NCBI GenBank assembly: GCA_020720365.1
Contig: DYOU01000007.1
Coordinates: 1-57,715, forward strand
DNA length: 57,715 nt
Reading direction: 5' to 3'
Origin: Candidatus Elulimicrobium sp.
GTDB lineage: Bacteria > Omnitrophota > Gorgyraeia > Zapsychrales > Fredricksoniimonadaceae
The notes beneath the pieces are model-generated. The model saw only the letters and a list, made by a program, of their open reading frames with translations, made no database searches and had not been told where the DNA came from. The translations under genes were made by a program, and so were the position numbers. Positions 26,745 through 50,493 of this stretch are shown in pieces (positions within the stretch are counted from its first letter, which is position 1; every line of letters begins with the position of its first letter).

Positions 26745-26779
26745 TCGAGAATGAATGAACACATGACGTACTGTTTTTC

Positions 26780-34118: not shown

Positions 34119-35852
34119 ATGAAACATGTGAAAGAAAATCAACTTGGGAGTTTAATGTTTTTAGCAGGGATCGCCGGTATTGTTTTATTAAGGCTGGTGA
34201 TATGGAAGTTTTTTTCAGGTGCCGAGACAATGGTTAAGGAGGACCTGAGCAATCTGATCGTGGCTTTCTTACAATTTTCGGCGGCGGCAGGTTTTATTGT
34301 TTACGCCTATCGACAACGCAGGGGTGTGTGGACGACCGGATTTGAATGGCCGTTGGGTTTGATGGCGGCGGCTTCTTTAGGGACTTTTTTTTATACATTA
34401 GATTTCTCGATGTCGCTGCGTTGGTGGCTTGCCTTGGCAGGAAGTATGGCGATGTTTTATGTATTGACACATACGTTGCAGGATCTTCAGCGGGTTAAAT
34501 GGTTCTTGTATTTTATTCTGGCCTGTGCCTGTCTGACGGCTTTCTTAGGTATTCAGGAGTTTTTTATGTTGTCTGCCCGCCAGCCTCAGCCTGGAGATGT
34601 GGATATAGCCAAGTACAATACCAGTTTTTATTATATTCTTGTTAATCGTCGGGTAACTTCTTTTCTGGGATGGCCGAACTCATTGGCGGGATATTTGTTG
34701 TTGATCTTTCCTTTTGCGGGCCTTTCTATTTTTATGGTTCGTCAGGTGTGGTTGAAATGTTTGCTGGGGGTGATATTTGCGGTTCTGGCAGGTGGCTTGC
34801 TGGTGACTTTTTCTTTTCTGGGGTGGCTGAGCCTCTTGTGTTCAACAGTGATTATTCTTCCGCTTGTCTTCAAGCGTCTTTTACCTCAAATGAATACGCA
34901 TTTAAAGGCTGTAGCGGTTGTTTTCGTTGGTATTCTGGCGATTTCTTTTCTGCTGGTTATTCTTCGTAAGGATTTCGCGGGGTCAATGCAGCCACGGATA
35001 GAATATTATATTCAGGCATGGGAATTGTTGAAGGCACAGCCTTGGGTTGGGTATGGATATGGGGCTTTTGGTATTGCGGCAAGGCCTATGGTGGAAACAG
35101 TGAATGGTTTTACCAATTATGTTCATAATTCTTTTTTGCAATGGTGGGTTGAGTGCGGGCTCCTTGGTCTGGCAGGTATTCTTTCTTTGATAGGCGTTTA
35201 CATTACCGCGGCACGCAGGATCCTTTTGCATTTTAAAGAAGGGGAAGGTAGTTTTGTTGCGATCGCGGTGGTATGGGGGATGTCGGCATTCCTGGTGGAT
35301 AATTTATTCAGTTTCACATTTATCAAACCTAATATTGCCGTGCATGGCTGGGCCATGATGGCGGTCTTTGCGGCGCTTTACCGGCAAACCTTGAAGCCGT
35401 CAGCGGGAGCTTTAGGGATTATTTCCGCAGGAGTTGGGTTTTCTTTGTGCATTGTTTCATTACTTGTGACCGGGGTTTTGATGGCGGCGCTTTTTTTTCT
35501 GCATTATGGAATGACCTCATTTCGAAACGGAGATATTGATGCGGCAGGCCGTGCCTTTGTGAGTGGTTCGTTGATCGACCGCTGGTCGTCTGCATATCCT
35601 TCAGCCGCGGGAGATGCCGCGATCAGGGTCTATCAGATGAGTGGAAGAGAATCGCATCTTCGTCTGGCAGAAGAGAATTTTCTGGAAGCCGTCCGCCGAG
35701 AGCCTTTGCAGTATGGTCCGCATCTTGTGCTGAGCCGTATTTATACGGCTTTAGGAGAGACAGATAAGGCATTAGCGTATGCGCGTGAATCCAAACGGTT
35801 ATCGCCGTATGAATATAACCGGGATATGTCACTGATCATGCCAAAGCACTGA
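34119..35852 (+). CDS. O-antigen ligase/oligosaccharyltransferase-like membrane protein with C-terminal TPR
   Basis: R..S.LGWPNSLAGYL, LLVTFS, PWVGYGYG.F and HNSFLQWWVECGLLG (Wzy_C pattern), plus a TPR-like tail. Confidence 0.85.
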   Translation: MKHVKENQLGSLMFLAGIAGIVLLRLVIWKFFSGAETMVKEDLSNLIVAFLQFSAAAGFIVYAYRQRRGVWTTGFEWPLGLMAAASLGTFFYTLDFSMSLRWWLALAGSMAMFYVLTHTLQDLQRVKWFLYFILACACLTAFLGIQEFFMLSARQPQPGDVDIAKYNTSFYYILVNRRVTSFLGWPNSLAGYLLLIFPFAGLSIFMVRQVWLKCLLGVIFAVLAGGLLVTFSFLGWLSLLCSTVIILPLVFKRLLPQMNTHLKAVAVVFVGILAISFLLVILRKDFAGSMQPRIEYYIQAWELLKAQPWVGYGYGAFGIAARPMVETVNGFTNYVHNSFLQWWVECGLLGLAGILSLIGVYITAARRILLHFKEGEGSFVAIAVVWGMSAFLVDNLFSFTFIKPNIAVHGWAMMAVFAALYRQTLKPSAGALGIISAGVGFSLCIVSLLVTGVLMAALFFLHYGMTSFRNGDIDAAGRAFVSGSLIDRWSSAYPSAAGDAAIRVYQMSGRESHLRLAEENFLEAVRREPLQYGPHLVLSRIYTALGETDKALAYARESKRLSPYEYNRDMSLIMPKH

Positions 35853-35892
35853 CTCTTGCCTTTTTTCGTTTCATAGTTAATACTTTATTATT

Positions 35893-37905
35893 ATGACGAT
35901 CTATTCAATGATCATTCAGAGTATGCGTTGTATTGTGGCAGGTGTATGTATGATGAGTGCGCTTGTGATGAGTATTCCCGCAAAGGGTTGGGCTGCGTCT
36001 GGGCCTTATGCGGCGATGGAGCTTCCCGTTCCTGGCCAAATGATGTCACTGAGTTCTAGCACCGATCCCGTCAGGCTTGAAGGGGTCAGGGTATACAGCC
36101 AAGAGCCTTTTCGTTTTGACTTTATTGTGAATAGAGGCCAGGCTGGTGAGGATGTTCGTCAGGAGAGCGAGCGCCTGATCCGGTATTTTCTAGCGGCCTT
36201 GACGGTTCCCGAGGAGGATCTTTGGGTCAACTTATCTCCATTTGAAGAAAACCGCATTATTCCGGAAAAGTTTGGGCAGACAGAGCTGGGCCGGGATCTC
36301 TTATCAGAAGACTATGTACTTAAACAGGTGGCTTCTTCGTTAGTCTATCCTGATGGGGCTGTGGGCAGGGTTTTTTGGAAGAAAGTGTATGCGTTAGCTG
36401 CGGAGAAGTTTGGGATTGATCGCACTGATATTCCGCTAGATGCATTAACTAAAGTATGGATCGTGCCTTCTCAAGCACTTATTTATGAAGATCCAGGAAC
36501 GTCTACGGCATATATTCTTGAATCACGTATGAAAGTGATGCTTGAGAGTGATCATCAGGCTCAAAAGGGAGGGACGGAGAATTCTTCATACATGAGTTCA
36601 GTGGAGTTGGCGAACAAAGATCCGTTGCAGGGAATATCAGAGCAGGTGATCCGTTCGGTTATTATTCCTTTGCTTGAACAAGAGGTGAATGAAGGGGCTC
36701 ATTTCAGTCGTTTACGTCAGGCGTATCAATCTTTGATCCTGGCGGCATGGTATAAACGGAAAGTGAAGGCAAGCCTTTTGGCTTCTGTCTATGTGGATCA
36801 GCGAAGGGTGAAGGGAATAGAGACCGGGGAACCTTTGGCATCGGCGAGAATTTATGAACAGTATCGTCAAGCTTTTCGGCAAGGTGTTTTTAATATTATT
36901 CGGGAAGAACGTATCGGAGAAGAGGAAGATTTTATTGCGCGTAAATATTTTTCCGGTGGGCTGGAGATGGGGGTTGATACAGTAATTCAGATTACCGGTT
37001 TTCAGGATCCAGCCATGGCAGCAGTATTTCGGGAAAGATATGCTTTGCCTGGAGGTGATCAGCGGGTGATTGTTTCGGCGGTGCTAGATCCGGAATTTGA
37101 GGGACAGAGAGAATTGATAAATAGTTCACAACCTGTTGCGGCGATTGATAATGCAATGAAGACTGTGCCGGATCTGTTTAACATGCTTTATAAAGAGGTC
37201 AGTTTTCGTCCGTTATCTCTTGCTGATGCGGAAGCATTACCGATTGAAGACAGCCTCAGCTTTGTGGATCATCCGATATTTAACCCATCAGGTGTGAGTG
37301 TGGTTGCTTTGTATGGAAGGAGTGTATTAAGAAAGACAGATGCTATCTTGCAGGGAGTGGCGATCGTCAGGCAGAGTGACTTCAGGTACAGCGTAGGACG
37401 GAATGATGTGCAAGCCTTCTTGCAGGTTTTCCGATTCGAGAAGACAGATATATTTAAAGAGGCTTTATTGGCCAGGGTTTTGAATGAATTGCGGATGGGG
37501 CGATCTAATCTGCAGGCGTGGAAGTATTTATTAGCTGTTGCCCCCGATAACAAGGAGGCTTTGGAGTTCTTTTTTAAGGCAGGGTTTGTGCTTTTGGCAA
37601 AGAAATTTGATAGTGGCTCAGAGGATCCGGACTATTATGTGATCACGGTCCAACGGGCCGAAGTTTTTGTGAAACGGGTGATGAAGAGCCGATGGTATCC
37701 GGATGATGCTCAAACCGCTAATACGGGTGGTATTGATATGCGTGATGAGCAGATGGTACTTCAGGTTCAGGGGGTTCCATCTTCTGCCGAAGTTTCAACA
37801 GCGAAATTTATTGATCCTTCCGCGTATATGAACGTTCCGGGATTCTCTGTGAGGATCATTGATTTAAAGGATTCAAAGTTCTGTCCCTTGACAGGATGTC
37901 ATTAA
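35893..37905 (+). CDS. Secreted modular protein: conserved-looking N-domain, GNAT-like cargo, GGID tail
   Basis: Signal peptide, block PFRFDFIV..LIRYFLAALTVPEEDLWVNLSP..GRDLLSEDYVLKQ..VWIVP..RKYFSGG, D-x-A-M/Q linkers, L.V...N..A..FF.KAGF and TGGIDM. Confidence 0.7.
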   Translation: MTIYSMIIQSMRCIVAGVCMMSALVMSIPAKGWAASGPYAAMELPVPGQMMSLSSSTDPVRLEGVRVYSQEPFRFDFIVNRGQAGEDVRQESERLIRYFLAALTVPEEDLWVNLSPFEENRIIPEKFGQTELGRDLLSEDYVLKQVASSLVYPDGAVGRVFWKKVYALAAEKFGIDRTDIPLDALTKVWIVPSQALIYEDPGTSTAYILESRMKVMLESDHQAQKGGTENSSYMSSVELANKDPLQGISEQVIRSVIIPLLEQEVNEGAHFSRLRQAYQSLILAAWYKRKVKASLLASVYVDQRRVKGIETGEPLASARIYEQYRQAFRQGVFNIIREERIGEEEDFIARKYFSGGLEMGVDTVIQITGFQDPAMAAVFRERYALPGGDQRVIVSAVLDPEFEGQRELINSSQPVAAIDNAMKTVPDLFNMLYKEVSFRPLSLADAEALPIEDSLSFVDHPIFNPSGVSVVALYGRSVLRKTDAILQGVAIVRQSDFRYSVGRNDVQAFLQVFRFEKTDIFKEALLARVLNELRMGRSNLQAWKYLLAVAPDNKEALEFFFKAGFVLLAKKFDSGSEDPDYYVITVQRAEVFVKRVMKSRWYPDDAQTANTGGIDMRDEQMVLQVQGVPSSAEVSTAKFIDPSAYMNVPGFSVRIIDLKDSKFCPLTGCH

Positions 37906-37915
37906 ATGTTATACT
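37888..37915 (+). promoter_or_regulatory. Sigma70 promoter of the fimbrial-like operon
   Basis: TTGACA, 16 nt, TATACT with an extended -10 TG. Confidence 0.7.
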
Positions 37916-37950
37916 TCGCATATCCTCTTTATTAATGTTTTTATAGATAA

Positions 37951-39318
37951 ATGACTAAAAAAACACAAACCTTTTTTCTCACCATTCTTTTATTTTTTAT
38001 ACCGCAGGCATGTTTTGCGGCGATAAGCCTAAGTGTTAATCCTGTTGATGGAAGCAACACCCTGCGTTTCAGGCCTTCTGTAGGCGGCATGGAAGATAGA
38101 AAAGAGATCCGTATTCGAGTTAATTCAACGGGAGGTACTCGTTACCAGGTTTTTCAGCGTTTAATGGAACCTCTGGTGAATGAAAAAGGTGAGACCTTGG
38201 ATATTCAGGTATTACAGACAGCGACAACCGGTAATTCGAATGCTTCCGGAACGCTGTATATGCAAAATATTGATCGGATGAGTATGGGAGAGCAGCTTTT
38301 ATATACATCAGGGCAGAATGGCGACAGTGATTCTTTTACGGTTGCTTATGCGGTTGATGCTGGAGTTGTGGATCGGAGCGGTATTTTTTGTGGTCGGGTT
38401 GTTTTTACGGTGCGGGCTATAGGAGAAGCGTCTCAGGAGCAGACATCGGTTAATATCATGATAGAAACGCTTTCTGTATGGAAAGCCGAGGTGGCCGGCG
38501 GCCGGAATAAGGGGTTGGTTCGGGTAAAAGATACAGATGTGACGGATCAGAGTGCTGATTTTGTTAAAGTATCATTTGCCGGTAGTTCTCATCAGGAAGT
38601 TCGTATTTATCAAGAGGTTTTTTCATTGCCGGAAGATGCTCAGGCCAATGAAATGAAAGAAGATGTTTTAAGGTTTTCAGTTGGAGCCAATGACGAGAAG
38701 GGTGTTCGGGCGGCAGGGGTTTCTTCGTTGGGCAGGGACAGCGTTCTTTTATATGCCGGCCAGGCTCAGGAGAATGATATCATCATCCGGTTCTTTGTGG
38801 ATCCGAAGGTTATTGCCCTTCAGGATGCAGGAACGTATTTTGGTAAGGTTAAGTATATTGTCGAGACCAATGATAAAAGGCAAGAGTTCCAGGTTGACCT
38901 GGAATGTGAGGTTCAGCCTGTTTTTACCGTTGATGTTATCCTGCCTCCGGAAGGCGTAAGTTTTAAAAATATTTTACCGAATGCACCGCCTTCGGAGCAT
39001 GAAGTTGTAGTTACAGTTCGCTCCAATCTTCATCGTCCCTATCAGATCCTGCAGGATATGCAGGCTCCGATGGTGAATGAAAAAGGCGAGGCTTTAAAGA
39101 AAGAATATTTTTCCATGAAAGTCGATCTTTCCGGGATGAAGGGCAAGACAAAGTTCACTGATTTTACGCCGATGGAAACCGGAGAATATACCATTTTCTC
39201 ATCGGATAATCAGGGCACAGCGGGTACCTTCAGGGTGATTTATCAGCTGCAGGGGTACCCTCAGATGAGCGGAGGCAATTATGCGGCTCCGATACGTTTT
39301 TCGTTGAATCAAAACTAG
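37951..39318 (+). CDS. Secreted triple-repeat beta-sandwich protein (putative minor/tip fimbrial subunit)
   Basis: Signal peptide, internal repeats YQVFQRLMEPLVNEKGETL / YQILQDMQAPMVNEKGEAL, and three terminal-strand motifs (GIFCGRVVF, GTYFGKVKY, GNYAAPIRF). Confidence 0.6.
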   Translation: MTKKTQTFFLTILLFFIPQACFAAISLSVNPVDGSNTLRFRPSVGGMEDRKEIRIRVNSTGGTRYQVFQRLMEPLVNEKGETLDIQVLQTATTGNSNASGTLYMQNIDRMSMGEQLLYTSGQNGDSDSFTVAYAVDAGVVDRSGIFCGRVVFTVRAIGEASQEQTSVNIMIETLSVWKAEVAGGRNKGLVRVKDTDVTDQSADFVKVSFAGSSHQEVRIYQEVFSLPEDAQANEMKEDVLRFSVGANDEKGVRAAGVSSLGRDSVLLYAGQAQENDIIIRFFVDPKVIALQDAGTYFGKVKYIVETNDKRQEFQVDLECEVQPVFTVDVILPPEGVSFKNILPNAPPSEHEVVVTVRSNLHRPYQILQDMQAPMVNEKGEALKKEYFSMKVDLSGMKGKTKFTDFTPMETGEYTIFSSDNQGTAGTFRVIYQLQGYPQMSGGNYAAPIRFSLNQN

Positions 39319-39343
39319 GTTAAACAAAAAAAAGGAGAGATGC

Positions 39344-39964
39344 ATGAAAACAAGGGCAAGTGTTATGATGGCAGCGGCTATTCTGCTCGCGCAGTCTGGC
39401 TCGTTATGGGCACAAACGGTTTTTACGATCACAGCAGCAGTTCCTGCGGCTACGAGTGTAAGCATCGCAGCATCAAGTATCACAGGAACGACATGGTCGA
39501 CTGCAGGTACAGCTTTAACCTTCGGAACGTTGACGTTTGATTCCAGTATTCCTACGGGATCAACCAAACCGTTGAACATTTGGCGTGCGCCGAATTATTT
39601 TGCTATTGATATTTCCAATAATGGCGGTGGCAGCCCGAGCGCATCTTTTACTTATACGGAAGGGTCCAAACCAACAGGACAGGTGCACGGCTTGGGGTAT
39701 AAAGGTACGATCGACTTCAAGAGGGTTACAATTAATACGGCTGGTGTTACGACTGATAATGTTATCACAGGGCATACCAAAAAAGCGTTGAGGGATATCA
39801 CTGTTACAGAGAGTATTTCTTCTTCTTTGACCGCGGGTGGTTGGTTAAGGGCTTATATTGGTCTTGCGGATGGCGCGACAGGAACTCCTGGTGAGCCTTT
39901 CGGTGCTACAGACTTACAGGGTAACTATACAGGAACATTGACGATCACAGCGACAACGATCTGA
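39344..39964 (+). CDS. Putative major fimbrial subunit (chaperone-usher/Csu-like)
   Basis: Signal peptide, alternating N-terminal strand VFTITAAVP, LTFG, Thr/Gly-rich body and C-terminal GNYTGTLTITAT. Strong RBS. Confidence 0.65.
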   Translation: MKTRASVMMAAAILLAQSGSLWAQTVFTITAAVPAATSVSIAASSITGTTWSTAGTALTFGTLTFDSSIPTGSTKPLNIWRAPNYFAIDISNNGGGSPSASFTYTEGSKPTGQVHGLGYKGTIDFKRVTINTAGVTTDNVITGHTKKALRDITVTESISSSLTAGGWLRAYIGLADGATGTPGEPFGATDLQGNYTGTLTITATTI

Positions 39965-39989
39965 TTATTAATGAATATTTGATGCTGAT

Positions 39990-40790
39990 ATGAGAAAACA
40001 AATAATATTTATTATGTTTTTTTGCATCGTCCTTGCCGGACCGGCCATGGCCCAATTCTTCATAGAAGAAGGAAAGGTTGTCTTGTCCGTGTCCGGCGGG
40101 GAACGCATCAATAAATCAGTTATTATTAATAATACAACAGCCAATGATCTGGATGTGCGCGTTTATTGGGAAGATTTTCAGTATGAACCGCCTTATGATG
40201 GCTCAAAGAAGTTCTTTCCTGCCGGGACAATAGAGGGCTCTGCCAGCAGCTGGATCCAGTATGTCCCGCAAGAGTTCAGATTGCCAGCTTTTGGCAAACA
40301 AAAGATTGATTATACACTGAGTGTACCGGATGATATTCAAGGAGGGCATTATGGTGTGCTTTTCTTTGAACGTTTGGGAGATGCGGCTGAAGGCCGTGCC
40401 GCTGTCAAGATCGTAACACGCCTAGGTTGTTTGTTCTTTATTGAAGCCAAAGACAAGACCAAGAGTGCGGAGCTGCAAAACATTAAATTTGAAGGTAATG
40501 ACCTTACAGGATCTTTCGCGAATAACAGTAATGTGGTGTTGATACCTCATACGACATATTACATTATGGATGAAAGCGGACTTGTCGCTGATCGCGGAGA
40601 AGTGGCGAAACTTTATGTTACGCCTGGAGCGGTAGCCTTCTGGAGGGTTTCATTGCCGAAGGATCTGGCCGCAGGGCGATATACATTTTTCCTGAACGCA
40701 GATCTTGAAGATGGAGATCTGGTGGTCAAAGAGATCACCTTTCAAAAAGATTTATCCGGAGGCCTGGTGGTCGAAAAAGTGCAGGATTAA
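39990..40790 (+). CDS. Periplasmic fimbrial chaperone-like protein (PapD/DUF916-like)
   Basis: I.N.T....V.V..ED, SASSWI...P..F.LP, VP....GGHYGVLFFE, second domain N.SNV...P and GRY. Confidence 0.7.
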   Translation: MRKQIIFIMFFCIVLAGPAMAQFFIEEGKVVLSVSGGERINKSVIINNTTANDLDVRVYWEDFQYEPPYDGSKKFFPAGTIEGSASSWIQYVPQEFRLPAFGKQKIDYTLSVPDDIQGGHYGVLFFERLGDAAEGRAAVKIVTRLGCLFFIEAKDKTKSAELQNIKFEGNDLTGSFANNSNVVLIPHTTYYIMDESGLVADRGEVAKLYVTPGAVAFWRVSLPKDLAAGRYTFFLNADLEDGDLVVKEITFQKDLSGGLVVEKVQD

Positions 40791-40831
40791 CCTTTGCATA
40801 ACCATCAATCCCGCTGACCGGACAACAGCTT

Positions 40832-43681
40832 ATGATCTTAAGACGAGCGTTATGTTTAATGATGGCGGCCTTTTTGATGTTATGGGCCTTTCCCTCTTTC
40901 GCTGAAGATCCGTATCTTTCCTATGAACAGTATTTGAATGAGGGTGTTCAAGCTTTTAAGAATCGCGATGATCAGGCTGCCTTGGATTATTTCCATCGGG
41001 CGCATCTTTTATATCCTTCAGCAGAAGAGCCGCTGCAATATATTAATCTGATCAAGCGTACTCAGGATGAACGGCTTCAGGTAATGGGTGTTCCTTTAGA
41101 GCCCGATCATCCAGAGGCGCGAGAAAAAGTTATCCAGGCGACTCTTGATCAGTTTGTCGGCCGTGCTCAGAAGCCATTAGCCATAACGCAACAACCTCTC
41201 CTTGAGAAAAAAGTAGAGCAGCCATTGCCTGCCAGGAAAGTGACAGCTTTGCCTGCTCTTTCCGCAACACAGGTAGTCAGTCATTCTTCTGCTATAAGAA
41301 AAACGAATGATGTGCTTTCATTGGATGATGTCGTGGCCTCCAGCCAGGACAGACCGTCGATCCGTATTGTTTTTGGTTCTTCGGTTATTGTAGAGGGAAG
41401 GAATCTGCAGCGGTTTCTGGCTGTTAATCCTGAGGCACTGAATGTTAAGCCGGCAGGGAGGGATCAGATCATTATTGAGGCTAAACATTGGGGAAGCTCA
41501 TTCTTACATATTTGGGATGAACGTGGGCGTACGACGGTGTATGTTGAGGTGATGCTTCCGGCGGCATCGAATGAATTTGTTTCTGCACAATCAGCTGCTG
41601 TGGAACATGCGCCTCCATTTCGTATGAATTATGCGTTGGATAACAGCTCTTTTTATTATGGACCGGATCTGGGTGGATTACGCCGCAGGAGTTTGAATGT
41701 TCAGGAAACGTTTGGACTGACAGGGGAGACGCCATACGGCCTTTTGGATACGTCTTTAGTTGCGACCGGATTTAATCCGGTCCTTGAGATCCCCAATTAT
41801 ACATTGGGGCTTTCGCATGTTCCGATGCCGGGGACGAGCGACCTTAATCTTCGGGTGTTTGACGGGTATCGATTCTTGTCGCCGTTGACGATGGTGGGGA
41901 CACGTTTGAAAGGAGCTTTTGCGGATGTTGTTTCTTTGAATAATATTCTGGCTGTTTCAGTCAGTCATGGGGCGCAAATGGGGTCTTTTAATTATTTACC
42001 AGGCGGCGGGTCGACAACAAAAGATTCGTTTATTGATGCGGTGCGAGTTTCACTTTTTCCGGGCAATACGACGCATGAATATTCGATCAATTTTGCGCAA
42101 GGCAGCGGCAGTGAGCGTGATGAATATTTAACAAAGAAGGTGTATTCGATCGAGGGCAGGCAGAAGTTGGGGCCTGTTGATCTGAATGCTGAGCTGGCTC
42201 GGGATGATGAGAATACTGCTTCATTGGCAGGAGCCCAATGGTTGAATGGGGCGCTCAGGCAGCGGTTGAGCTTCAGGGAGATCAACAAGGATTTTACAAC
42301 GATCGTTTCGTCTCCGTCTAATCAAGGTGAGATCGGTGGTACCTGGACGACGAGTGGAGAGTGGGACAGGCTTTCCATGGATACGTATGTTGATGTATAT
42401 AAAGACAGAATATTCCCCAATGAACAGGATCCTGAGGCGTTAAATCTTGATTCGAATGTTCATACACGGATACCATTTGGAGAAAAATATGCGGTTGATG
42501 CGGCGGTGCGGTACGTACATACGCCAGGAGAAATGTCACCGAGAAGATATGCGAGCGTTGATGGCCGTTTGACACGAGAGCTTCCGGTATGGGGAGGTCG
42601 TAAGGGAAGTGTTTATGTAGGGGGAGTGGATCAGCGAAGCCGGTTTTCGTTTGCCTCGGAATCAGAATACGACCGCGAAGCTGTTTCGGCGGGAGTTCAG
42701 GTGCCGTTGACGAGATCATTATCTGGTTATTTAAATTATGAATATTCATGGCTGCATGAAAAGTTTTCGCTTGAGGATTACAATCCTTCGGTGATGAATG
42801 CGGGGTTATCTTACAGTAAGCAGCTGACCAACAAGCTTTCAGGAAATTTAGGCTTAATGTATCGTGATGAAGAGAATGTTGAGGGGCGTAATAGTTTTTT
42901 GGCCGGGGAGGACAGTGTATCAGCCTCTGCCGGGCTATCGTATAATCCCAAGACCGATGTGAATTTTTTCTGTGATTCGCGTTTAAGGAATGTCCTGGCG
43001 CAAATTCCCGATAATCCTTCTTATAATGACCTGGATGTCCGTTTTGGTATGCGGATGGCATTCGGATTGGGCTTTTCACTGGATTCTGAAGGTATTGTGA
43101 CGGGTTTTGTCTTTAAGGATCGGGATGGGAATAAGAAATTTGATCCACAGGACACGAATGTTTTGGGAGATGAGGGGCTTGCAGGGATCAAGGTCAAGAT
43201 CGGCGATAAAGAGGCGGTGACCGATGAACGCGGTTGGTATCGACTGGCGATCCGCGGTAAAAAAGTTATCGTTACACCGGTGCTCGAGAGTTTACCGACA
43301 GGGTTTGTTTTTTCAACGCCAAGTTTCGCGAAATTGGAGCTTCGTCAGGGGCAGACCAGCCGGGTAGATTTTGGCTTAACGAGTCAATCGGGTGTGTATG
43401 GCGTGGCGTTCGTGGATCGAAATGGAAACGGAATCCCTGATCAGGGTGATCGTTTTGTGAGCCGGGTGAAAGTTCTTTTAGATGGGAAAGGGGCTCAGGT
43501 CACCGATGGCCGTGGAGCGTATTTCTTCAAGAATATCGCCAAGGGCAAGCACACGTTAACGATCGATATGAAAGATCTTCCAGCTGAGTTTATTCCGCTT
43601 GTAAAATTAAAGAATTCTGTGGATGTAGTTGAAGGAACGACCTATGTTTTTCATATTCCGTTGAAAGCCAAGGCGGAATAA
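40832..43681 (+). CDS. Usher-like outer-membrane protein (TPR + pilus-secretin N-domain + beta-barrel + two SdrD-B-like domains)
   Basis: N-terminal TPR, GSS....LQRFLAVNPE......IIIEAKHWGSSFLHIWD, a long amphipathic beta region, and GFVFKDRDGN and GVAFVDRNGNG repeats. Confidence 0.65.
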   Translation: MILRRALCLMMAAFLMLWAFPSFAEDPYLSYEQYLNEGVQAFKNRDDQAALDYFHRAHLLYPSAEEPLQYINLIKRTQDERLQVMGVPLEPDHPEAREKVIQATLDQFVGRAQKPLAITQQPLLEKKVEQPLPARKVTALPALSATQVVSHSSAIRKTNDVLSLDDVVASSQDRPSIRIVFGSSVIVEGRNLQRFLAVNPEALNVKPAGRDQIIIEAKHWGSSFLHIWDERGRTTVYVEVMLPAASNEFVSAQSAAVEHAPPFRMNYALDNSSFYYGPDLGGLRRRSLNVQETFGLTGETPYGLLDTSLVATGFNPVLEIPNYTLGLSHVPMPGTSDLNLRVFDGYRFLSPLTMVGTRLKGAFADVVSLNNILAVSVSHGAQMGSFNYLPGGGSTTKDSFIDAVRVSLFPGNTTHEYSINFAQGSGSERDEYLTKKVYSIEGRQKLGPVDLNAELARDDENTASLAGAQWLNGALRQRLSFREINKDFTTIVSSPSNQGEIGGTWTTSGEWDRLSMDTYVDVYKDRIFPNEQDPEALNLDSNVHTRIPFGEKYAVDAAVRYVHTPGEMSPRRYASVDGRLTRELPVWGGRKGSVYVGGVDQRSRFSFASESEYDREAVSAGVQVPLTRSLSGYLNYEYSWLHEKFSLEDYNPSVMNAGLSYSKQLTNKLSGNLGLMYRDEENVEGRNSFLAGEDSVSASAGLSYNPKTDVNFFCDSRLRNVLAQIPDNPSYNDLDVRFGMRMAFGLGFSLDSEGIVTGFVFKDRDGNKKFDPQDTNVLGDEGLAGIKVKIGDKEAVTDERGWYRLAIRGKKVIVTPVLESLPTGFVFSTPSFAKLELRQGQTSRVDFGLTSQSGVYGVAFVDRNGNGIPDQGDRFVSRVKVLLDGKGAQVTDGRGAYFFKNIAKGKHTLTIDMKDLPAEFIPLVKLKNSVDVVEGTTYVFHIPLKAKAE

Positions 43682-43686
43682 TCGTT

Positions 43687-43917
43687 TTATAAAACCACAA
43701 TAGATCTTACTGTAACCACTTCCTGATTGCGGACCATCTGCTGCTCCTGGACTATTCCTGATTCATTGAATACTTGCTGGTTTTGATCTGCCGCAGGCAT
43801 TTGAATTAAAGCAGGAACGGTAACCGATAAATTGAAGACCATGGATTCAGCCCAGGCAGAGCCCGCTTGTGCCAAGATGAGAACAGTCAGGATTGTTAAT
43901 GTCAGATGTTTTTTCAT
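43687..43917 (-). CDS. Small secreted protein resembling the N-terminus of the fimbrial subunit
   Basis: RBS AAGGGGG, 23-aa signal peptide ending LAQAGSAWA, mature ESMVFNLSVTVPA. Lies downstream of a riboswitch. Confidence 0.8.
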   Translation of the reverse strand: MKKHLTLTILTVLILAQAGSAWAESMVFNLSVTVPALIQMPAADQNQQVFNESGIVQEQQMVRNQEVVTVRSIVVL

Positions 43918-43966
43918 TGTCGCCCCCTTGTTTAAGGTAAGACGACTTGAAAGAGATGGAAGGACA

Positions 43967-43997
43967 CAAAAAAGAAAGCTAGCGTGCGGTTAGCTTC
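43967..43997 (-). terminator. Riboswitch expression-platform terminator
   Basis: On the minus strand, AAGCTA-ACCGCACGC-TAGCTT is followed by TCTTTTTT. The left arm overlaps the aptamer 3' end. Confidence 0.7.
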
Positions 43998-44090
43998 GGC
44001 AACCTGACGACCATTCCCTTATCATAATGATAAGGGGTTAGGCTCACGGCTTTGCGTCCTACTCTTTCAAGTAGTTTGCCTTTTTCGACT
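43995..44090 (-). ncRNA. Cyclic di-GMP-I (GEMM-I) riboswitch
   Basis: The minus strand reads AGUCGAAAAAGGCAAACUACUUGAAAGAGUAGGACGCAAAGCCGUGAGCCUAA-(CCCUUAUC hairpin)-AUGGUCGUCAGGUUGCCGAA. This matches the GGCAAAC / GAAA tetraloop / GGACGCAAAG / CCUAA..AUGG receptor / GUUGCCG consensus. Confidence 0.93.
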
Positions 44091-44119
44091 ATAAAGAACA
44101 ATTTCCTTCCCCGATTTAA

Positions 44120-44149
44120 AGCATAACATATTCCGGTTCGCATTGCCAA
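44120..44149 (-). promoter_or_regulatory. Putative promoter for the riboswitch-led gene
   Basis: Minus strand TTGGCA, 18 nt, TATGCT with extended -10 TG, about 30 nt before the aptamer. Confidence 0.5.
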
Positions 44150-44318
44150 GATTGGCTAGGGAAAACAACCTTTCTTGATTTCGCCCTAAGTACGAATGAA
44201 CCATTTTTCTCTTGAAAAGTCAGGGGTAATTGATCGAATCGTGGTATTATTGCGGAGCCTTAATGTTCGTTAAGGGGTGGACATTGGTTGTGTTAAATTT
44301 TATTCTTAGGAAAATAAA

Positions 44319-45914
44319 ATGAATGATTCAATGAAGGAAGAAATAGCGCGCCGCCGGACATTCGCGATCATTTCGCACCCGGACGCAGGAAAAACAACAT
44401 TAACCGAAAAGCTTTTGCTTTACGGCGGAGCTTTGGATCTGGCCGGTTCGGTTACGGCGAAAAAGAAACAGAGAGAGACGGCATCCGATTGGATGGAGCT
44501 TGAAAAGAAGCGAGGGATCTCGATATCATCCACAGTTTTACAATTTGATTATGAGGGGTATCGGTTGAACTTATTGGATACTCCGGGACATAAGGATTTT
44601 TCTGAAGACACCTATCGCGTGCTTATGGCGGTGGACGCGGTTGTGATGGTGATTGATGCCGGTAAAGGGATTGAAAGTCAGACACGCAAGCTTTTTGAGA
44701 TCTGCCGTAAACGTGGTATTCCGATCTTTACGTTTATGAATAAACTCGACAGGCCTTCGATGTCGGCGCTGGAGTTGATCGATCAGCTTGAAAAAGTGCT
44801 TAATTTGCATGCTTTCCCCGTTAATTGGCCTTTGGGGAACGGCCCGGATTTCAAAGGCATTTATGACCGGGTGAAGAAAGAAGTGCATCTTTTTGAGAGA
44901 GTCCCCGGCGGGGCTTATCGTGCGCCTGTTTCTGTGCATGATCTTGGAGAGCCCTTTGTGAAGGGGCTTTTGTCCGAGGGTACTTACCGGGAAGTGGTTG
45001 AGGAACTTGAAATGCTTGACGGAGCGCATGGCGGGTTTGATCTAAATGAGGTCATGCAGGGGCGGACGACTCCGGTATTTTTTGGCAGTGCTGCCAATAA
45101 CTTTGGCGTGGAGTTTTTGTTGAATGGATTTCTCGAGCATTCGGCTCCGCCGGCACCAAGAAAAACGAAGAATGGGCTTATCCCGTTAGATCATCCTGAT
45201 TTTTCGGCGTTCATTTTTAAAGTTCAGTCCAATATGAATCCTCAACACAGGGACAGGGTGGTATTTGCCAGGGTCTGTTCAGGACGGTTTGTGCGTGATA
45301 TGAAAGTGTTCCATCATCGGTCAAAGAAGGAAGTGAGGTTATCAGATTCATATAATCTTTTTGGACGTGATCGGGAAGTCATTAATGAAGCATATCCGGG
45401 AGATATTATCGGGTTTGTTACAAAACTGGATTACAGGATCGGGGATACGATCAGCACTGATCCGAGCTTGTTTTTTGAAGAGATCCCTCGTTTTGCCCCG
45501 GAATGTTTTGCGTTTCTTCATAATTCAGCGGCTTCTACCTACAAGCCCTTTAGGAAAGGTTTGGACCATTTATTGGCAGAAGATATCGTTCAATCATTTA
45601 CGATGACCGGTTTCCGGAATAATATTCCACTCTTGGGAGCGGTCGGGCCTTTGCAATTTGAGGTGCTTCAGTATCGTTTAAAAGATGAGTATGGCGGTGA
45701 ATCGCGGCTGGAAACGCAACCGTGGAAACTTTTACGCTGGGTTGCGCCTCCCTTTAATGATGAAGAATTAAAGAATTCATTATCCCAGGAAGCGGCTTTG
45801 GCCAAGGATGATCAGGGACGTACGGTCATTCTTTTTGCCAGTGATTGGTCGCTCAAGTATTATTCAGGGAGGTATCCAGCGATAAAATTGTTGGATTCTC
45901 CTTCGTTTAAGTAG
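44319..45914 (+). CDS. prfC: Peptide chain release factor 3
   Basis: RRRTFAIISHPDAGKTTLTEKLLL, SDWMELEKKRGISI, DTPGHKDFSEDTYR, NKLD and GAVGPLQFEV. Confidence 0.97.
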   Translation: MNDSMKEEIARRRTFAIISHPDAGKTTLTEKLLLYGGALDLAGSVTAKKKQRETASDWMELEKKRGISISSTVLQFDYEGYRLNLLDTPGHKDFSEDTYRVLMAVDAVVMVIDAGKGIESQTRKLFEICRKRGIPIFTFMNKLDRPSMSALELIDQLEKVLNLHAFPVNWPLGNGPDFKGIYDRVKKEVHLFERVPGGAYRAPVSVHDLGEPFVKGLLSEGTYREVVEELEMLDGAHGGFDLNEVMQGRTTPVFFGSAANNFGVEFLLNGFLEHSAPPAPRKTKNGLIPLDHPDFSAFIFKVQSNMNPQHRDRVVFARVCSGRFVRDMKVFHHRSKKEVRLSDSYNLFGRDREVINEAYPGDIIGFVTKLDYRIGDTISTDPSLFFEEIPRFAPECFAFLHNSAASTYKPFRKGLDHLLAEDIVQSFTMTGFRNNIPLLGAVGPLQFEVLQYRLKDEYGGESRLETQPWKLLRWVAPPFNDEELKNSLSQEAALAKDDQGRTVILFASDWSLKYYSGRYPAIKLLDSPSFK

Positions 45915-46094: not shown

Positions 46095-47018
46095 ATGAGC
46101 TCTGAGCATCGTTCCAACATTCTTCTTGAAGCTCAAACCAGTGAGCTGGAGATCGTTGAATTCTCTGTAGGGGAAGCGGTGTACGGTATTAATGTGGCCA
46201 AGGTGAAAGAGATCATTAAGGCCAGTTTAACGCTTGTTCAGGTGCCTGATGCTCATCCGTCGATTGCGGGTGCCATTAATTTGCGCGGTGCTATTATTCC
46301 AGTTGTAGACCTGTCCCATCATTTAAAGATAAAAACAATCGCAGACCTTAAAAAGAGCCGGATCATTATTGCCGAGTTTAATCGTATTGTATTGGGATTT
46401 TTAGTGAGCGGTGTGGCCCGAATTCACCGGATCTCTTGGAAATCGGTTGAAGTGCCGTCTCAAATGCTGGTTACAACGGAAGGTTATGCTTCAGGGATTG
46501 TTCGAATTGAAAAGAAAGTTATTTTTCTTCTGGATTTTGAAAAGATTGCATTCCATATTAATCCGAATGTTCATATCCTTTCTCCGAAAGGAGGGGAGTA
46601 TGGCGGGTCTTCTGTTGACCGCGGGTCAAAGCGGATCCTGGTGGTCGATGATTCGGATCTGGTGCGTAAGCTGATCGTGGGGCATTTGAATTCGGCAGGG
46701 TATCAAACGGATACCGCTACAAATGGGGTAGAGGCATTGGATAAACTACAAACCTTCGCCGGACGTTCTGATTTTACGTCGATCGATCAGTTTTATCATT
46801 TGATGGTAACGGATATTGAAATGCCTCAGATGGATGGACTTCATCTGATCAAAAAGGTGAAAGAAGATGTCAAATTGCGAAACTTGCCGTGTATTGCTTT
46901 TTCGTCAATTATGTCGAAAGAAATGATCCGTCAATGTCAGTCTTGTGGAGCTGATGGAGAAATATCCAAGCCTGAGATCGCAGAACTGGTCGGACTTGTG
47001 GATGCGAAGGCGTTATAA
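46095..47018 (+). CDS. cheV: Chemotaxis protein CheV (CheW + receiver)
   Basis: ILLE...ELEIVEF, YGINVAKVKEI, LRG.IIPVVDL and receiver VDDS..VTDIEMPQMDG..FSS..SKP. Confidence 0.92.
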   Translation: MSSEHRSNILLEAQTSELEIVEFSVGEAVYGINVAKVKEIIKASLTLVQVPDAHPSIAGAINLRGAIIPVVDLSHHLKIKTIADLKKSRIIIAEFNRIVLGFLVSGVARIHRISWKSVEVPSQMLVTTEGYASGIVRIEKKVIFLLDFEKIAFHINPNVHILSPKGGEYGGSSVDRGSKRILVVDDSDLVRKLIVGHLNSAGYQTDTATNGVEALDKLQTFAGRSDFTSIDQFYHLMVTDIEMPQMDGLHLIKKVKEDVKLRNLPCIAFSSIMSKEMIRQCQSCGADGEISKPEIAELVGLVDAKAL

Positions 47019-47068
47019 ATTTTGCCTCAAATGGATTTTTTTAATAACAGATGAACAGAGGGGGTAGC

Positions 47069-48760
47069 ATGCTGGATAATATTCAAATAGGGGTAAAGCT
47101 TATCGCAGGTTTTTTGTTAGTGGCCTTGATTGCGCTTTGTGTGGGTGTCATCGGTTATTATGGAATGTCCGTTATTTCTAATCAGTTAAAGTTTGTTGGC
47201 ATTGACAAAGTTTCTGACATTGAGGCATTGGGGGATTTGAATGAACAGCAAATGGCAATACGAGTAGGAACATTGAGTGTTTATCAGTATGAATTTAAAG
47301 ACAGCGCTCAGGAAGATTTTCGCAGAATTATCGAGGCTCGTCAGGAGAGTTGGAAGATTGTTGATGATGCCTGGAAGCGGTTGATTGAAGTCCCCAGAGA
47401 CGATCAGAAGGAACGGGATTTGATCCAGCGATTAAAAGGTGAATATGAAGCGTGGCGGGCTGCTTATGTAAGGCTTGACGCGAGTATTCTTGAATTGACA
47501 TCAACCACCGCTGATAATAAAAAGGCTGTTTTTGAGAAATACCGTTTGCAGGTCAAGGAAATGATCCATTTGTCGGAGGCCATGGGGAAGACTTTGGATG
47601 AGGTAACAGTGAATAATGCAGCAGCGACAAAGAATCTGGTTGAAAAAAATCTTGCGGCGATGGTTCGGTTGAAGTTGATTCTTGTGGTTTCCATTATTAT
47701 GGGGCTATTTTTGTCAATTATGTTTGGTTTTTATTTCAGTGGATCTATTACGGGTCCTATGGCTTCGAGCGTGAGGGTGATGGAGTCAATGGCCGGTGGA
47801 GATTTAACGCAGAGGCTGGATATGAATCGTGCGGATGAAATTGGTGTGATGGCAAAAACAATGGATACTTTTTCTGACAAGTTATCCAGTATGATGGGAC
47901 AGATCAGTTTGAATGCGGATCAGCTTTTGGGGGCGACCCATGAAGTATCTTCGAGCTCTCAGCAGATCGCTGACGGGGCTCAACAGCAGTCAGCTTCGTT
48001 TGAAGAGTTGTCTTCTTCAGTACAGGCGAATGCCGAAAATGCCCGGAGTGCGAATGGGATCGCCCAGGACGCGTCCAAGGAAGCTCAGGAAGCGGGTCAG
48101 GCTATGGACAATACAGTAGAGGCTATCAGCGGTATTGAGAAGGGTTCAAAGCAGATGGCAGATGCTGTTGAATTGATCACGGATATCGCGGATCAGACGA
48201 ATCTTTTAGCGTTGAATGCGGCTATTGAAGCGGCGCGTGCCGGTGAGCATGGCAAGGGCTTCGCGGTTGTCGCGGATGAAGTCCGTCAGCTGGCTGAGCG
48301 CAGTTCTACATCGGCTAAAGAGATCCAGAATCTGATCAAGGATAATTTGAGGCAGGTTGAGAATGGTGTCAAGATCTCAAAAGAAGCCGGAGCGAAGACT
48401 AAAAATATTTCTGTCAGTATCAAGAAGATCGCTGAACAGTTGATCGCTGTAGCTAATGCTACTCAGGAGCAGGCCGCGGCCATGGAAGAAAATACATCTA
48501 TTACAGAATCCAACGCGTCTGCCGCTGAACAGCTGGCATCTGCCTCTGAACAGATGACGTCCCAGGCGGAAGGTTTGCGTAACCTTGTAGCGCAGTTCAG
48601 GACCAATTCCTCGGGTGCATCTTTTCATGCGGCTCCGGCGGTTGAAAAACGTACGAGTCATTCGACTCCTGTGAAGAAAACAGCCCCTGTGGTTAAGAAG
48701 AGCGGGAGGCCTATAGAGAGATCGGGTAGTAATAAAGAAGAAGGCTTAAGGATCGGATAA
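47069..48760 (+). CDS. Methyl-accepting chemotaxis protein (4HB sensor, HAMP)
   Basis: Two TM helices, GDLTQR..DEIG HAMP and [34 protein letters not shown]. Confidence 0.95.
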
Positions 48761-48779
48761 TCGTATTGAGGGAGGGAGC

Positions 48780-49169
48780 ATGGAACGTCGTCAATACATG
48801 AGGGTAAGCGGGAAGCATCTGGTGCGGCATGAGCAGTTCACTATCCCGAGGGGTACGGAGGTTCGGGAAAACAGGGCCAAAAATATCAGTGCGAACGGAC
48901 TTTTGTTTGAGTCATCCGTAAAATATAATATGGGTGTTATTCTTCGGCTGGAGCTTCTGGTCATGGGGATTAACAAGTTCAAGACAGAATTCTATAAACA
49001 TGAACGGCTTTCTAATACAGAGCCGTTCATTGTTTTAGGGAAAGTGGTCCGTGTAGAAATGGTCTATGAGGGGCTTTATGATATTGGGGTGAGTTTAGTG
49101 GGATTGGATTATTTATTCCAGAAGGCTCTCACAAAATATATTGATCATCAATTAAATCAGAATCCCTGA
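48780..49169 (+). CDS. PilZ domain protein
   Basis: ERRQYMR, NISANG, GKVVRV and YDIGV. Confidence 0.85.
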   Translation: MERRQYMRVSGKHLVRHEQFTIPRGTEVRENRAKNISANGLLFESSVKYNMGVILRLELLVMGINKFKTEFYKHERLSNTEPFIVLGKVVRVEMVYEGLYDIGVSLVGLDYLFQKALTKYIDHQLNQNP

Positions 49170-49179
49170 GGGTTGGTTT

Positions 49180-49983
49180 ATGAGTGAGCAAGCGATAGAC
49201 AAGAAAAATGGGCCGGAAGGCAGCTTTGATCGTGTTATTCAGTTGATCAGCGAGTGTGTTGTGATCAAAGCCCAGTTACAGCAGTTCATGAGTGACCTGG
49301 ATGGGGAGAAACAGAAATCACGCGCAGTCACTTTAAAAATGAACGAGATCGTTCAAGGTCTTCAGAATGTCCAGAAGGGTGTGGATATTCAAAAGATTTT
49401 AGGGCTGGTGCTGAAGGATTCGGAGGGTTTATATGAAGTCCTTCATTCAAGTCGTTTAGGACCGGTGATCGTCTCTATGGATGAAGCTGTGGCCCGCTTC
49501 AGTAAGGTAATGGGGGATCTTCAGCATGAGTTGGTGACTATGGATCTTGGGGCATCGGCTATTTCTATTATGCAGGTGCTTTTGGTCAAGATCGATGGTG
49601 AGATCTATGCTATTCCGATCGAGGCGGTGTTGGAGATATTCAAGGTGAAAAAGAATGATATTCATTCTGTAGACGGAAATGACACGGTTTCCTTGCGCGG
49701 GCATGCGTTGGGTGTGGTAAATGTCGGACAGGTTTTAGGAATGCCGAATGCCAAAACGAAAGACCTGGTAGACCGTAAGGTGGTTGTTATTACGGATTCG
49801 GCACAACAAATCGGTGTGATCGTGGATGAATTGTTGGGAGAGGAAAGTGTGGTCTTCAAGGATCTTCCTGTGCAGTTAAGGGGGATGAAAGGGCTTCGCG
49901 GGGCATCTATTTTAGGCGATGGGCGTGTGGGACTTATCATTGATTCGGCCATGCTGATCAGTATGGCTGGCGGCAAGGAGTGA
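49180..49983 (+). CDS. Truncated CheA-like protein (P3 dimerisation + P5 only)
   Basis: FDRVIQLISECVVIKAQL..FSKVMGDLQHELVTM (P3-like) joins to ISIMQVLLVK..YAIP..GASILGDGRVGLIID (P5). No HPt or ATPase motifs. Confidence 0.8.
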   Translation: MSEQAIDKKNGPEGSFDRVIQLISECVVIKAQLQQFMSDLDGEKQKSRAVTLKMNEIVQGLQNVQKGVDIQKILGLVLKDSEGLYEVLHSSRLGPVIVSMDEAVARFSKVMGDLQHELVTMDLGASAISIMQVLLVKIDGEIYAIPIEAVLEIFKVKKNDIHSVDGNDTVSLRGHALGVVNVGQVLGMPNAKTKDLVDRKVVVITDSAQQIGVIVDELLGEESVVFKDLPVQLRGMKGLRGASILGDGRVGLIIDSAMLISMAGGKE

Positions 49984-49985
49984 CC

Positions 49986-50489
49986 ATGGCGACAGGTATA
50001 TCAGGGGTCTCAAAAGAGAATTCGATCGAGATTGTTCAGTTCGTTTGCTTTAAATTGGCGAATGAGGAATACGGGATCGATATTAACTGTGTGCAGGAAG
50101 TCCTTCGGCCGCAACAGATCACGCCTATGCCGCAAATGCCGGATTTTGTTTTAGGTGTGATGAACATTCGAGGGATCGTTGTGCCGGTATTTGATCTGCG
50201 TAGAAAATTGCATCTGGCGATGAAAGAGCTGGATGATTACAGCCGGATCATCCTGATCCAGTTAAACGGGGTCATGGGCAGTTATCTGGTTGATGAAGTG
50301 CTGGACAACATCAAGCTGGATGGATCCAAGATCGATCCAACGCCGGATGTTAAAATGTCGATCGCCAGGGATTGTGTGCGCGGGCTGGGAATGGTGGATA
50401 AACGTATCATTGTGATCATTGATCATCAGACAGTTGATGCATCTATATTAAAAGATATTCAGGAAAAACTGGTTTCTAAGCGGGGATGA
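49986..50489 (+). CDS. cheW: Chemotaxis protein CheW
   Basis: QFVCFKLANEEYGIDI..VQEV and GVMNIRG.VVPVFDLR. Confidence 0.92.
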   Translation: MATGISGVSKENSIEIVQFVCFKLANEEYGIDINCVQEVLRPQQITPMPQMPDFVLGVMNIRGIVVPVFDLRRKLHLAMKELDDYSRIILIQLNGVMGSYLVDEVLDNIKLDGSKIDPTPDVKMSIARDCVRGLGMVDKRIIVIIDHQTVDASILKDIQEKLVSKRG

Positions 50490-50493
50490 ATGT

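Follow-up and report, generated by a model that had tools for sequence, protein, structure and literature searches.

A conserved, riboswitch-associated gene cassette of Omnitrophota predicted to build a chaperone-usher-like surface fibre

What is built by four closely spaced genes for secreted proteins that follow a strong promoter-like site in a genome of the phylum Omnitrophota? The DNA that raises this question, referred to below as the window, is a stretch of 57,715 bases (40-50 % G+C) of contig DYOU01000007.1 from Candidatus Elulimicrobium sp. (assembly GCA_020720365.1). We analyzed the four genes, here called A, B, C and D, together with a small convergent gene, E, and the cyclic di-GMP (c-di-GMP) riboswitch ahead of it. 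The locus probably encodes a chaperone-usher-like machine with lineage-specific parts that builds a surface fibre by donor-strand complementation and exchange. Our functional claims are drawn from sequence, predicted structures and synteny; none of the 12 sequencing runs that contain the stretch is listed as RNA. The features of the locus are as follows.

37888-37915, plus strand: promoter-like site of the sigma-70 type (TTGACA, 16-nt spacer, TATACT, TG before the -10 element)
37951-39318, plus strand: gene A, 455 residues
39344-39964, plus strand: gene B, 206 residues
39990-40790, plus strand: gene C, 266 residues
40832-43681, plus strand: gene D, 949 residues
43687-43917, minus strand: gene E, 76 residues, secreted, convergent with D
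43918-43994, minus strand: expression platform, linking the aptamer to gene E
43995-44090, minus strand: c-di-GMP-I aptamer (RF01051), Rfam match of 78.6 bits
44120-44149, minus strand: candidate promoter of the riboswitch-E transcript (TTGGCA, 18-nt spacer, TATGCT, TG), weak, 9 of 12 consensus positions

An initial annotation, made from the letters of the sequence, had placed a promoter ahead of four closely spaced genes for secreted proteins, and both are present where it put them. The genes are separated by 25, 25 and 41 nt, and the promoter-like site matches 11 of 12 consensus positions. It is the top-scoring of 16 such sites in 37500-44500, against a mean of 10.9 sites in shuffled sequence; it spans the stop codon of the upstream open reading frame (ORF), with the start of A 35 nt further on. 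Sites matching at least 10 of 12 positions also lie 5' of A in 18 of 30 sequences (29 related loci and the window), in a scan that had no shuffle control. A Sec-type signal peptide was read by eye at the start of each of A, B, C and D, and, E included, all five proteins bear predicted signal peptides. The same annotation had closed the locus at 43681, which is too early, because the fifth gene and its riboswitch (minus strand, 43687-44090) are part of the conserved unit.

To establish what that unit is, we retrieved related loci with a pattern scan built on an eight-sequence alignment of D, keeping one genome per species, which gave 41 loci (designated here by L numbers). Nearly all come from Omnitrophota metagenome-assembled genomes; the labels also include Eisenbacteria (once) and generic Planctomycetes (several times), and homologues of D bear Candidatus Omnitrophota names. 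These loci are kin and the counts are not of independent events; they were catalogued with tblastn and with hidden Markov models (HMMs) from our own alignments, so that the seeds match by construction and detection is in part self-detection. All four families were found in 31 of the 41 loci, with the order A-B-C-D kept in 30, and the conservation of the four genes as a group, on which the initial annotation had staked its reading, thus holds. Contig ends cut eight loci (L020, L023, L024, L031, L035, L037, L044 and L046), and two are variants (L047 and L049). Extra B paralogues occur in L010, L012, L026, L038 and L042, and in L026 three B genes precede A. The genes that flank the cassette in the window (for a 670-residue secreted protein, a Wzy_C/TPR protein and prfC) are not conserved with it in the related loci. 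Five conserved genes, A to D plus the convergent E, and one riboswitch form a discrete cassette. With the C family taken as its marker, 150 of the 401 Omnitrophota genomes in our sample had a profile match, as did 138 of the 340 of high quality and 120 of 281 genera. Two loci also hold irregular genes: a 521-residue protein with a B-type C-terminal end lies 5' of A in L038 (2861-4426) and is probably a fused or extended subunit, and in L021 (9926-12285) a frameshift or an assembly error has broken the D homologue into a pair of ORFs, of 190 and 655 residues, that overlap.

Protein C had been described as a two-domain chaperone-like protein, and its AlphaFold model indeed consists of two immunoglobulin (Ig)-like beta-sandwich domains with a PapD-like chaperone fold (predicted local distance difference test, pLDDT, 92.6; predicted template modelling score, pTM, 0.81). 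A conserved strand-loop-strand hairpin occupies residues 119-153 (strands 119-128 and 144-153), and its loop, 129-143, is the sole low-confidence stretch of the model. Foldseek ranked WxLIP of Enterococcus faecium (9i1y, 9i25; E 2.5e-12) in places 1-3, followed by CfaA, Caf1M, CsuC, FimC, PapD and EcpB. An unbiased VIA-align search over 48,161 chains was likewise headed by WxLIP (Z 15.9, 227 residues aligned). CfaA aligned over 198 residues (Z 13.6, root-mean-square deviation, rmsd, 4.7), and the other pilus chaperones gave Z values of 12.8 (YadV), 12.4 (SafB and FimC), 12.0 (CupB2), 11.6 (PapD), 11.5 (EcpB) and 10.9 (FaeE and CsuC, the latter one of the proteins with which the initial annotation had suggested comparison). 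The pilus chaperones are matched over their full length, whereas glycosidases and MSP cover one domain only.

The best match of the C-family profile among PDB sequences was the EcpB chaperone (E 0.01), exactly over the conserved hairpin. WxLIP_PGBD (PF06030) is the commonest Pfam match of the family (46 of 138 members, best E 1.1e-06), and WxLIP_HBD (PF11797) is matched by six of the 138 at E 0.01 or better. The C protein of the window matches neither of the two even at E 1, has no match to PapD_N (PF00345) at E 1 or better and none in the Pfam and NCBIfam scans; PapD_N is also absent from the 25 families listed for 28 C members and for the 138. Generic Ig-like families are matched as well (fn3_5 by 36 and LacZ_4 by 10 of the 138), and we judged the matches to fn3_5, LacZ_4 and NPCBM_assoc to reflect fold-level likeness of a single domain. 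A hydrophobic C-terminal anchor is missing in 137 of the 138 members (19-residue windows over the last 60 residues), and in the one member with a hydrophobic window there, that window is not terminal. A sequence search with the family returned 10,227 matches at E 0.001 or better; among those listed there were only close relatives of Omnitrophota type, and two matches are annotated at source as PapD-type chaperones. By modelled fold and by sequence, C lies nearer the WxLIP (DUF916/DUF3324) chaperones of Gram-positive bacteria than the PapD family, a relation that the profile matches indicate to be sub-threshold kinship and not membership. We propose that C is a soluble periplasmic chaperone with a PapD/WxLIP fold.

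A predicted complex of mature C with mature B weakly supports this proposal. Its score was 0.56 (runs at 0.19, 0.56 and 0.59), compared with 0.00 for the best of three controls, with contact agreement of at least 34 % and a partner pLDDT of at least 78. Of 157 solved complexes, 116 pass the mark set for this score, and so do 2 of 215 mismatched pairs; 18 of the 157 solved complexes and both of these mismatched pairs pass it with scores of up to 0.60.

Protein D was modelled with AlphaFold2 from a 41-sequence alignment (pLDDT 85.4), and its strands were assigned with DSSP and counted by us. The model has the following order.

N-terminal part: signal peptide, TPR-like helices (27-109) and a disordered linker (111-157)
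160-241: beta domain, T2SS-T3SS_pil_N, about the size of a plug
264-745: barrel of 26 consecutive strands, with a longest inter-strand gap of about 15 residues
753-851 and 854-946: two C-terminal beta-sandwich domains

The initial annotation had read 40832-43681 as a beta-rich outer-membrane protein and expected a large barrel with a plug, of an architecture foreign to PapC and FimD. The large barrel is indeed predicted, and the plug insert is missing from between its strands. As for architecture, D shares with PapC and FimD a barrel followed by two C-terminal beta-sandwich domains, and differs from them in the number of strands, the plug and the N-terminal module. In a Foldseek search against the PDB, ranks 1-12 were all FimD or PapC (E 1.5e-18 to 1.2e-13, 770-850 aligned columns); barrels of transporter type began at E 3.4e-08, and SdrD appeared through the C-terminal domains. 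Pfam matches comprised SdrD_B (859-912, E 5.6e-08), T2SS-T3SS_pil_N (176-235, E 1.4e-05) and weak TPR matches, and there was a weak match to TIGR03016, a family of PEP-CTERM-associated outer-membrane proteins (E 0.0039). The VIA-align comparisons of D were these.

MtrB (6r2q_B): Z 17.8, 426 residues aligned, rmsd 5.5, model residues 260-744
PapC: Z 16.6, 500 residues aligned, rmsd 16.7, model residues 258-947 against PapC 139-808
FimD: Z 16.4, 504 residues aligned, model residues 263-945
Porins: Z 15-16, 250-300 residues aligned, barrel only

Only the usher alignments continue through both C-terminal domains, and D therefore shares with ushers the order of barrel, first and second C-terminal domain. 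No Usher (PF00577) match at E 0.01 or better was found anywhere in the genome, in a search whose controls in E. coli and Deinococcus were positive. We therefore propose D as a putative usher-like outer-membrane protein that is not an usher by sequence.

The secreted proteins encoded ahead of C are candidates for the matching subunits. Mature B contains 19.7 % Thr, 12.6 % Gly and no Cys, and it ends in G-N-Y-T-G-T-L-T-I-T-A-T, so that its description in the initial annotation as a Thr/Gly-rich, cysteine-free protein with a distinctive terminal strand is confirmed. This end (in the family, a G-x-Y-x-G-T-L-T-x-T-A-T strand) is the most conserved part of the B family, with Gly193 and Tyr195 invariant and Gly197 nearly so among 34 members; the family also keeps a strand right after the signal peptide (F-x-V-S-A-T-V-P type) and an L-x-F-G motif. 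In A, the triple repeat noted earlier was borne out by profile comparison: its three segments of about 140 residues are homologous, with hhalign probabilities of 99.5, 99.4 and 98.3 % (E 3.6e-22, 1.9e-21 and 1.1e-14). Each repeat starts with a hydrophobic-alternating strand that ends in Pro and closes with a G-x-[YF]-x-x-x-hydrophobic-x-hydrophobic strand, so that B and every A repeat have the terminal-strand motif in common. Compared with the B profile, the second repeat gives a weak alignment (E 1.5e-4, probability 52 %), and in view of the shared starting and ending strands A reads as three tandem B-like domains; it is present in 31 of the 41 loci. We propose B as the major fibre subunit and A as a tip or adaptor subunit.

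Database searches place neither protein in a known family. A and B have no match in the Pfam or NCBIfam scans, and the B-family profile found chance-level matches only among PDB sequences (E 0.25 and 1.7). Against 5.8 billion proteins the same profile gave 20 matches, all close relatives without Pfam domains and either unnamed or from Omnitrophota. None of the 34 B-family members matches WxL (PF13731) at E 10 or better, in a search where the HMMER filters drop most weak matches, and a whole-genome search for SCPU gave no signal, but its controls were silent too. Among feature neighbours in a language-model Atlas, B falls near an unnamed cluster with 15 % SCPU members (score 0.96) and A near one with 25 % (score 0.91). 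This hints at archaic pilins but goes no further, and it is the one result in favour of the view, taken in the initial annotation, that the C-terminal G-x-Y-x-G motif marks archaic and alternative chaperone-usher subunits.

The convergent gene E adds a small partner with its own control region. The signal peptide and mature N-terminal strand of E (the latter of S-F-x-L-S-V-T-[IV]-P type) both resemble those of B, and they are followed by a polar Gln-rich linker and a conserved C-terminal strand-turn-strand; at about 53 mature residues it lacks a pilin body, and it has no Pfam match. Without their signal peptides, the E and B profiles align in register over the first 17 mature residues only (E 0.0029). 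An E HMM found a convergent E-like ORF 3' of D in 34 of the 41 loci; among the other seven, the sequence of five does not extend downstream, and L019 and L049 are true misses. The D and E stop codons, 5 nt apart and tail to tail in the window, lie within 15 nt of each other or overlap in 25 of 33 sequences (overlapping in five), and no plus-strand terminator was called between the two genes. Since the stops abut or overlap, the D and E transcripts must overlap.

The aptamer upstream of E is the only Rfam match in the window, where it sits in the 637-nt gap between D and prfC, and it covers positions 1-87 of the 87-position model (78.6 bits against a gathering score of 35; E 8e-14). E starts 77 bases 3' of it on the minus strand. 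Rfam scans showed that 28 of the 41 loci have an aptamer placed as in the window, convergent and 3' of D (9/9, 6/7, 4/8, 6/7 and 3/10 by batch of loci scanned). The c-di-GMP-I-GGC variant (RF03167) scores best in L017, L040, L043 and L045; in L045 an aptamer of this type lies on the operon strand ahead of a B-like gene (8014-8098, plus strand), and in L049 the aptamer is located elsewhere. In the expression platform of the window, a hairpin pairs the purine-rich ribosome-binding stretch just before the E start codon, and a U-rich tract can pair with the aptamer core. In single-sequence folds, most of the close loci showed hairpins that sequester the Shine-Dalgarno sequence, whereas those of L028, L029 and L048 resembled terminators. 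The genome has five GGDEF matches, and riboswitches of the c-di-GMP-I class often control adhesion, pilus and motility genes. From its strand and missing body we tentatively suggest that E is a donor-strand-only cap, terminator or anchor of the fibre.

Some loci carry further genes in this region. A single-domain A-like gene of 175-184 residues lies between E and D in L045 (12664-13218, minus strand) and L047 (6923-7450, minus strand). Three more distant loci have an extra Lys/Glu-rich ORF of 79-81 residues, with no signal peptide, between the riboswitch and E, on the minus strand (L040, 13137-13376; L042, 9793-10038; L043, 13400-13639). The genome of the window also holds a second, weaker c-di-GMP-I aptamer (contig C53, 10719-10791; 38.1 bits), 5' of a 102-residue Cys-rich cytoplasmic ORF.

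Put together, these parts suggest the following scheme. The promoter at 37888 would drive A-B-C-D as a single transcript. In the periplasm, soluble C would hold B and A by inserting its hairpin 119-153 beside their C-terminal G-x-Y-x-G strand, and D would dock the C-subunit complexes on its periplasmic domains and thread the growing fibre through the 26-strand barrel. B subunits would join head to tail by means of their N-terminal strand, with A, as three tandem B-like domains, at the tip or serving as an adaptor. E, offering a donor-type N-terminal strand without an acceptor body, could cap the last subunit at the proximal end; made under control of the riboswitch, it would let c-di-GMP set termination, length or anchoring. 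Because the 3' ends of the two genes adjoin, the E transcript would also extend antisense into the 3' end of D, which may provide a second layer of control.

The barrel of D, its FimD and PapC matches, the fold of C and the conservation of the gene set all support the non-canonical chaperone-usher-type fimbria that the initial annotation had inferred. Against it stand, for D, the lack of any PF00577 match at E 1 or better, the lack of a plug insert (no loop among the 26 strands is long enough) and a pTM of 0.60, at which the packing of the domains is uncertain. VIA-align moreover ties the candidate barrels (Z 15-18), placing that of D as near to MtrB and the porins as to ushers, so that the usher signal rests on the Foldseek ranking and the C-terminal domains. 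The predicted C-B complex is weak, with one of its three runs at 0.19. None of the 34 B-family members matches SCPU (PF05229) or any Pfam pilin family, and the suggestion of an incomplete Ig fold and a donor strand in B comes entirely from motifs. The likeness of E to B is short (17 residues, hhalign probability 10.7 %), and where the E HMM matches B proteins, the signal peptide is part of the match. In L019, finally, E is missing despite 1.2 kb of DNA downstream of D, and L015, L020, L027, L037, L041 and L045 have E and no riboswitch 3' of D at the Rfam threshold.

The alternatives differ in how much of the machine they keep. The same fibre could be built with E in another part, as a competitive periplasmic inhibitor that blocks subunit grooves, as a gate of the D barrel or through RNA-level damping of the operon. 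The plugless barrel speaks for this, as do D and E stops so close (at most 15 nt apart or overlapping in 25 of 33 sequences) that the transcripts overlap with no plus-strand terminator called between them, and the conserved strand-turn-strand at the C-terminus of E, which would be superfluous in a simple donor peptide. A mature peptide of about 53 residues is, however, small for gating a 26-strand barrel, and E is conserved as a protein, in its signal peptide and its N- and C-terminal motifs, over 34 loci, which argues that it is not merely an antisense spacer; on balance we regard these other roles as rather unlikely, if less so than the readings that dispense with the fibre.

Of the latter, one has A to D export and display surface proteins or an envelope layer, with no polymeric fibre; D would then be a general large-pore exporter or have a part in polysaccharide or PEP-CTERM-type export, with C as an Ig-fold periplasmic binding protein. 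We consider this reading improbable. The barrel of D does align equally well with MtrB, AlgE and Occ porins (Z 15-18), D has its weak TIGR03016 match (E 0.0039), the C family has its fn3_5 and LacZ_4 matches, and a Wzy_C/TPR gene lies upstream in the window. However, polysaccharide-type neighbours are not conserved with the cassette, the whole-length matches of C are to pilus chaperones while glycosidases match one domain, and the top Foldseek block of D consists exclusively of ushers. Subunit paralogues also multiply in some loci, as pilins do, and export would leave the terminal-strand motifs shared by A, B and E unexplained. Another is that D is the MtrB-like sheath of an extracellular electron conduit: MtrB (6r2q_B, Z 17.8) is its best VIA-align match, and the barrel of MtrB has 26 strands, as does that of D. 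All barrel Z values are tied within about 2 units, however, no cytochrome gene is conserved beside the cassette, and A, C and D contain no CxxCH haem motif, with B lacking cysteine altogether. We rejected this highly improbable reading because the haem motifs are missing. A chaperone-usher-like fibre thus remains the reading that we prefer.

The wider window provides some context for the cassette. All of its non-nested ORFs of at least 150 residues are on the plus strand, with a positive GC skew throughout (0.13-0.32), and units on the minus strand, such as the riboswitch and gene E, are rare. Just 5' of the operon (34119-37905) lie genes for a 577-residue Wzy_C (O-antigen-ligase-like) membrane protein with C-terminal TPR and for the 670-residue secreted protein, which has no Pfam match. 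Wzy_C/TPR proteins include pilin O-glycosyltransferases, and beside this gene we note that B is rich in Thr and Ser. About 10 kb upstream of the operon, a cluster resembling those of type IV pili and type II secretion systems (15235-27388) points to a second, unrelated fibre system. It encodes a T2SSE ATPase with an MshEN domain (a c-di-GMP-binding module), T2SSF, PilN-like and PilO-like proteins, a secretin, a TPR protein and two N_methyl prepilin-type proteins, one of 716 residues. A gene at 10385-14638 encodes a 1,417-residue sensor histidine kinase whose domains are dCache, several of PAS type, HATPase_c and, at the C-terminus, a PBP-like one. Downstream of the operon, a chemotaxis cluster (46095-50964) comprises a CheW-receiver (CheV-type) protein, a methyl-accepting chemotaxis protein and three more CheW-domain proteins.

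How does the cassette compare with known systems? Chaperone-usher pili are a textbook Gram-negative machine, and the operon logic of Fim, Pap, CFA/I, Caf1 and Csu (subunits, a two-domain periplasmic chaperone and a large outer-membrane protein) recurs here. C has the chaperone fold, with Z values of 13.6 to 10.9 from CfaA through CsuC, D combines a barrel with two C-terminal beta-sandwich domains and finds its best Foldseek matches in FimD and PapC, and the subunits likewise keep N-terminal and C-terminal strands. Unlike those systems, the proteins of the locus match neither PF00577 nor a pilin family, and PF00345 is not among the families listed for C. A plug domain is inserted between the barrel strands in the PapC and FimD structures, whereas D has 26 strands with no plug insert, and a TPR-like segment and a T2SS-T3SS_pil_N domain replace the usher N-terminal domain. 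A three-domain tandem subunit as first gene and a convergently encoded mini-subunit under riboswitch control are further differences.

The best structural match of C leads to a second system, the Elr/WxL pilus of Enterococcus, whose WxLIP chaperone it resembles. According to an October 2026 preprint, WxL pilins there are assembled by chaperone-primed donor-strand exchange, the chaperone ElrE (DUF916/DUF3324) priming them by donor-strand complementation (10.64898/2026.10.17.759780). The same preprint, which screened 4,698 genera at Pfam gathering thresholds, reports the system from Bacillota only, apart from a small satellite in Actinomycetota, and records a C-terminal membrane helix in 96.7 % of WxL chaperones (10.64898/2026.10.17.759780). 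C, by contrast, is soluble and lacks that helix, B has no WxL domain match, and the cassette has an outer-membrane usher-like partner that is absent from the Gram-positive system; no sortase-type anchor was seen, in the absence of a systematic search. The Omnitrophota C proteins would escape such a screen, because it applied Pfam gathering thresholds, and threshold-based Pfam screens can thereby miss whole lineages.

For E, the closest parallel is with PapH-type terminators. The role that we propose is the same, that of a strand-donating last subunit which cannot be extended. PapH is a full-size pilin whose block lies in its own groove, whereas E has about 53 mature residues and no pilin body, and is transcribed separately and convergently behind a riboswitch. 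That riboswitch is itself a full-length match to the c-di-GMP-I (GEMM-I) class (RF01051), here ahead of a tiny convergent gene that adjoins a chaperone-usher-like operon. For ushers in Omnitrophota, a full-text search returned nothing relevant by title or abstract, and for c-di-GMP riboswitches together with chaperone-usher systems it returned general reviews only. The words usher, fimbria and c-di-GMP do not occur in the main text of the 2023 Omnitrophota survey (PMC10066038) or in that of a 2026 preprint on complete Omnitrophota genomes, and the main texts also lack the words chaperone (in the survey) and riboswitch (in the preprint).

We infer that the system works like a chaperone-usher pilus yet belongs to no described family. 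We do not file it under usher, PapD, SCPU, WxLIP or WxL, because the sequence tests failed and the plug and the WxLIP anchor are missing. It is possible, though we put this forward with much less assurance than the fibre itself, that the Omnitrophota, a diderm phylum, have in it their own, third lineage of pili assembled by donor-strand exchange, made up of a WxLIP-type chaperone, an usher-like pore with neither a plug nor sequence kinship to ushers, and a riboswitch-gated donor-strand terminator. If so, a chaperone type reported so far only from Gram-positive bacteria would work with a diderm pore, linking the Gram-positive WxL pathway to the chaperone-usher pathway, and E would be the first case of a pilus terminator controlled directly by an RNA that senses a second messenger. 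A Gram-positive-like chaperone beside an usher-like pore, in a cassette counted in 150 of 401 genomes, bears on the relation of the two pathways in any case. Omnitrophota are uncultured, often ultra-small and possibly host-dependent, and an adhesive fibre tuned by c-di-GMP would, if real, matter for their attachment. The riboswitch-gated mini-subunit offers a simple, testable hypothesis of how a second messenger could control the termination of a pilus.

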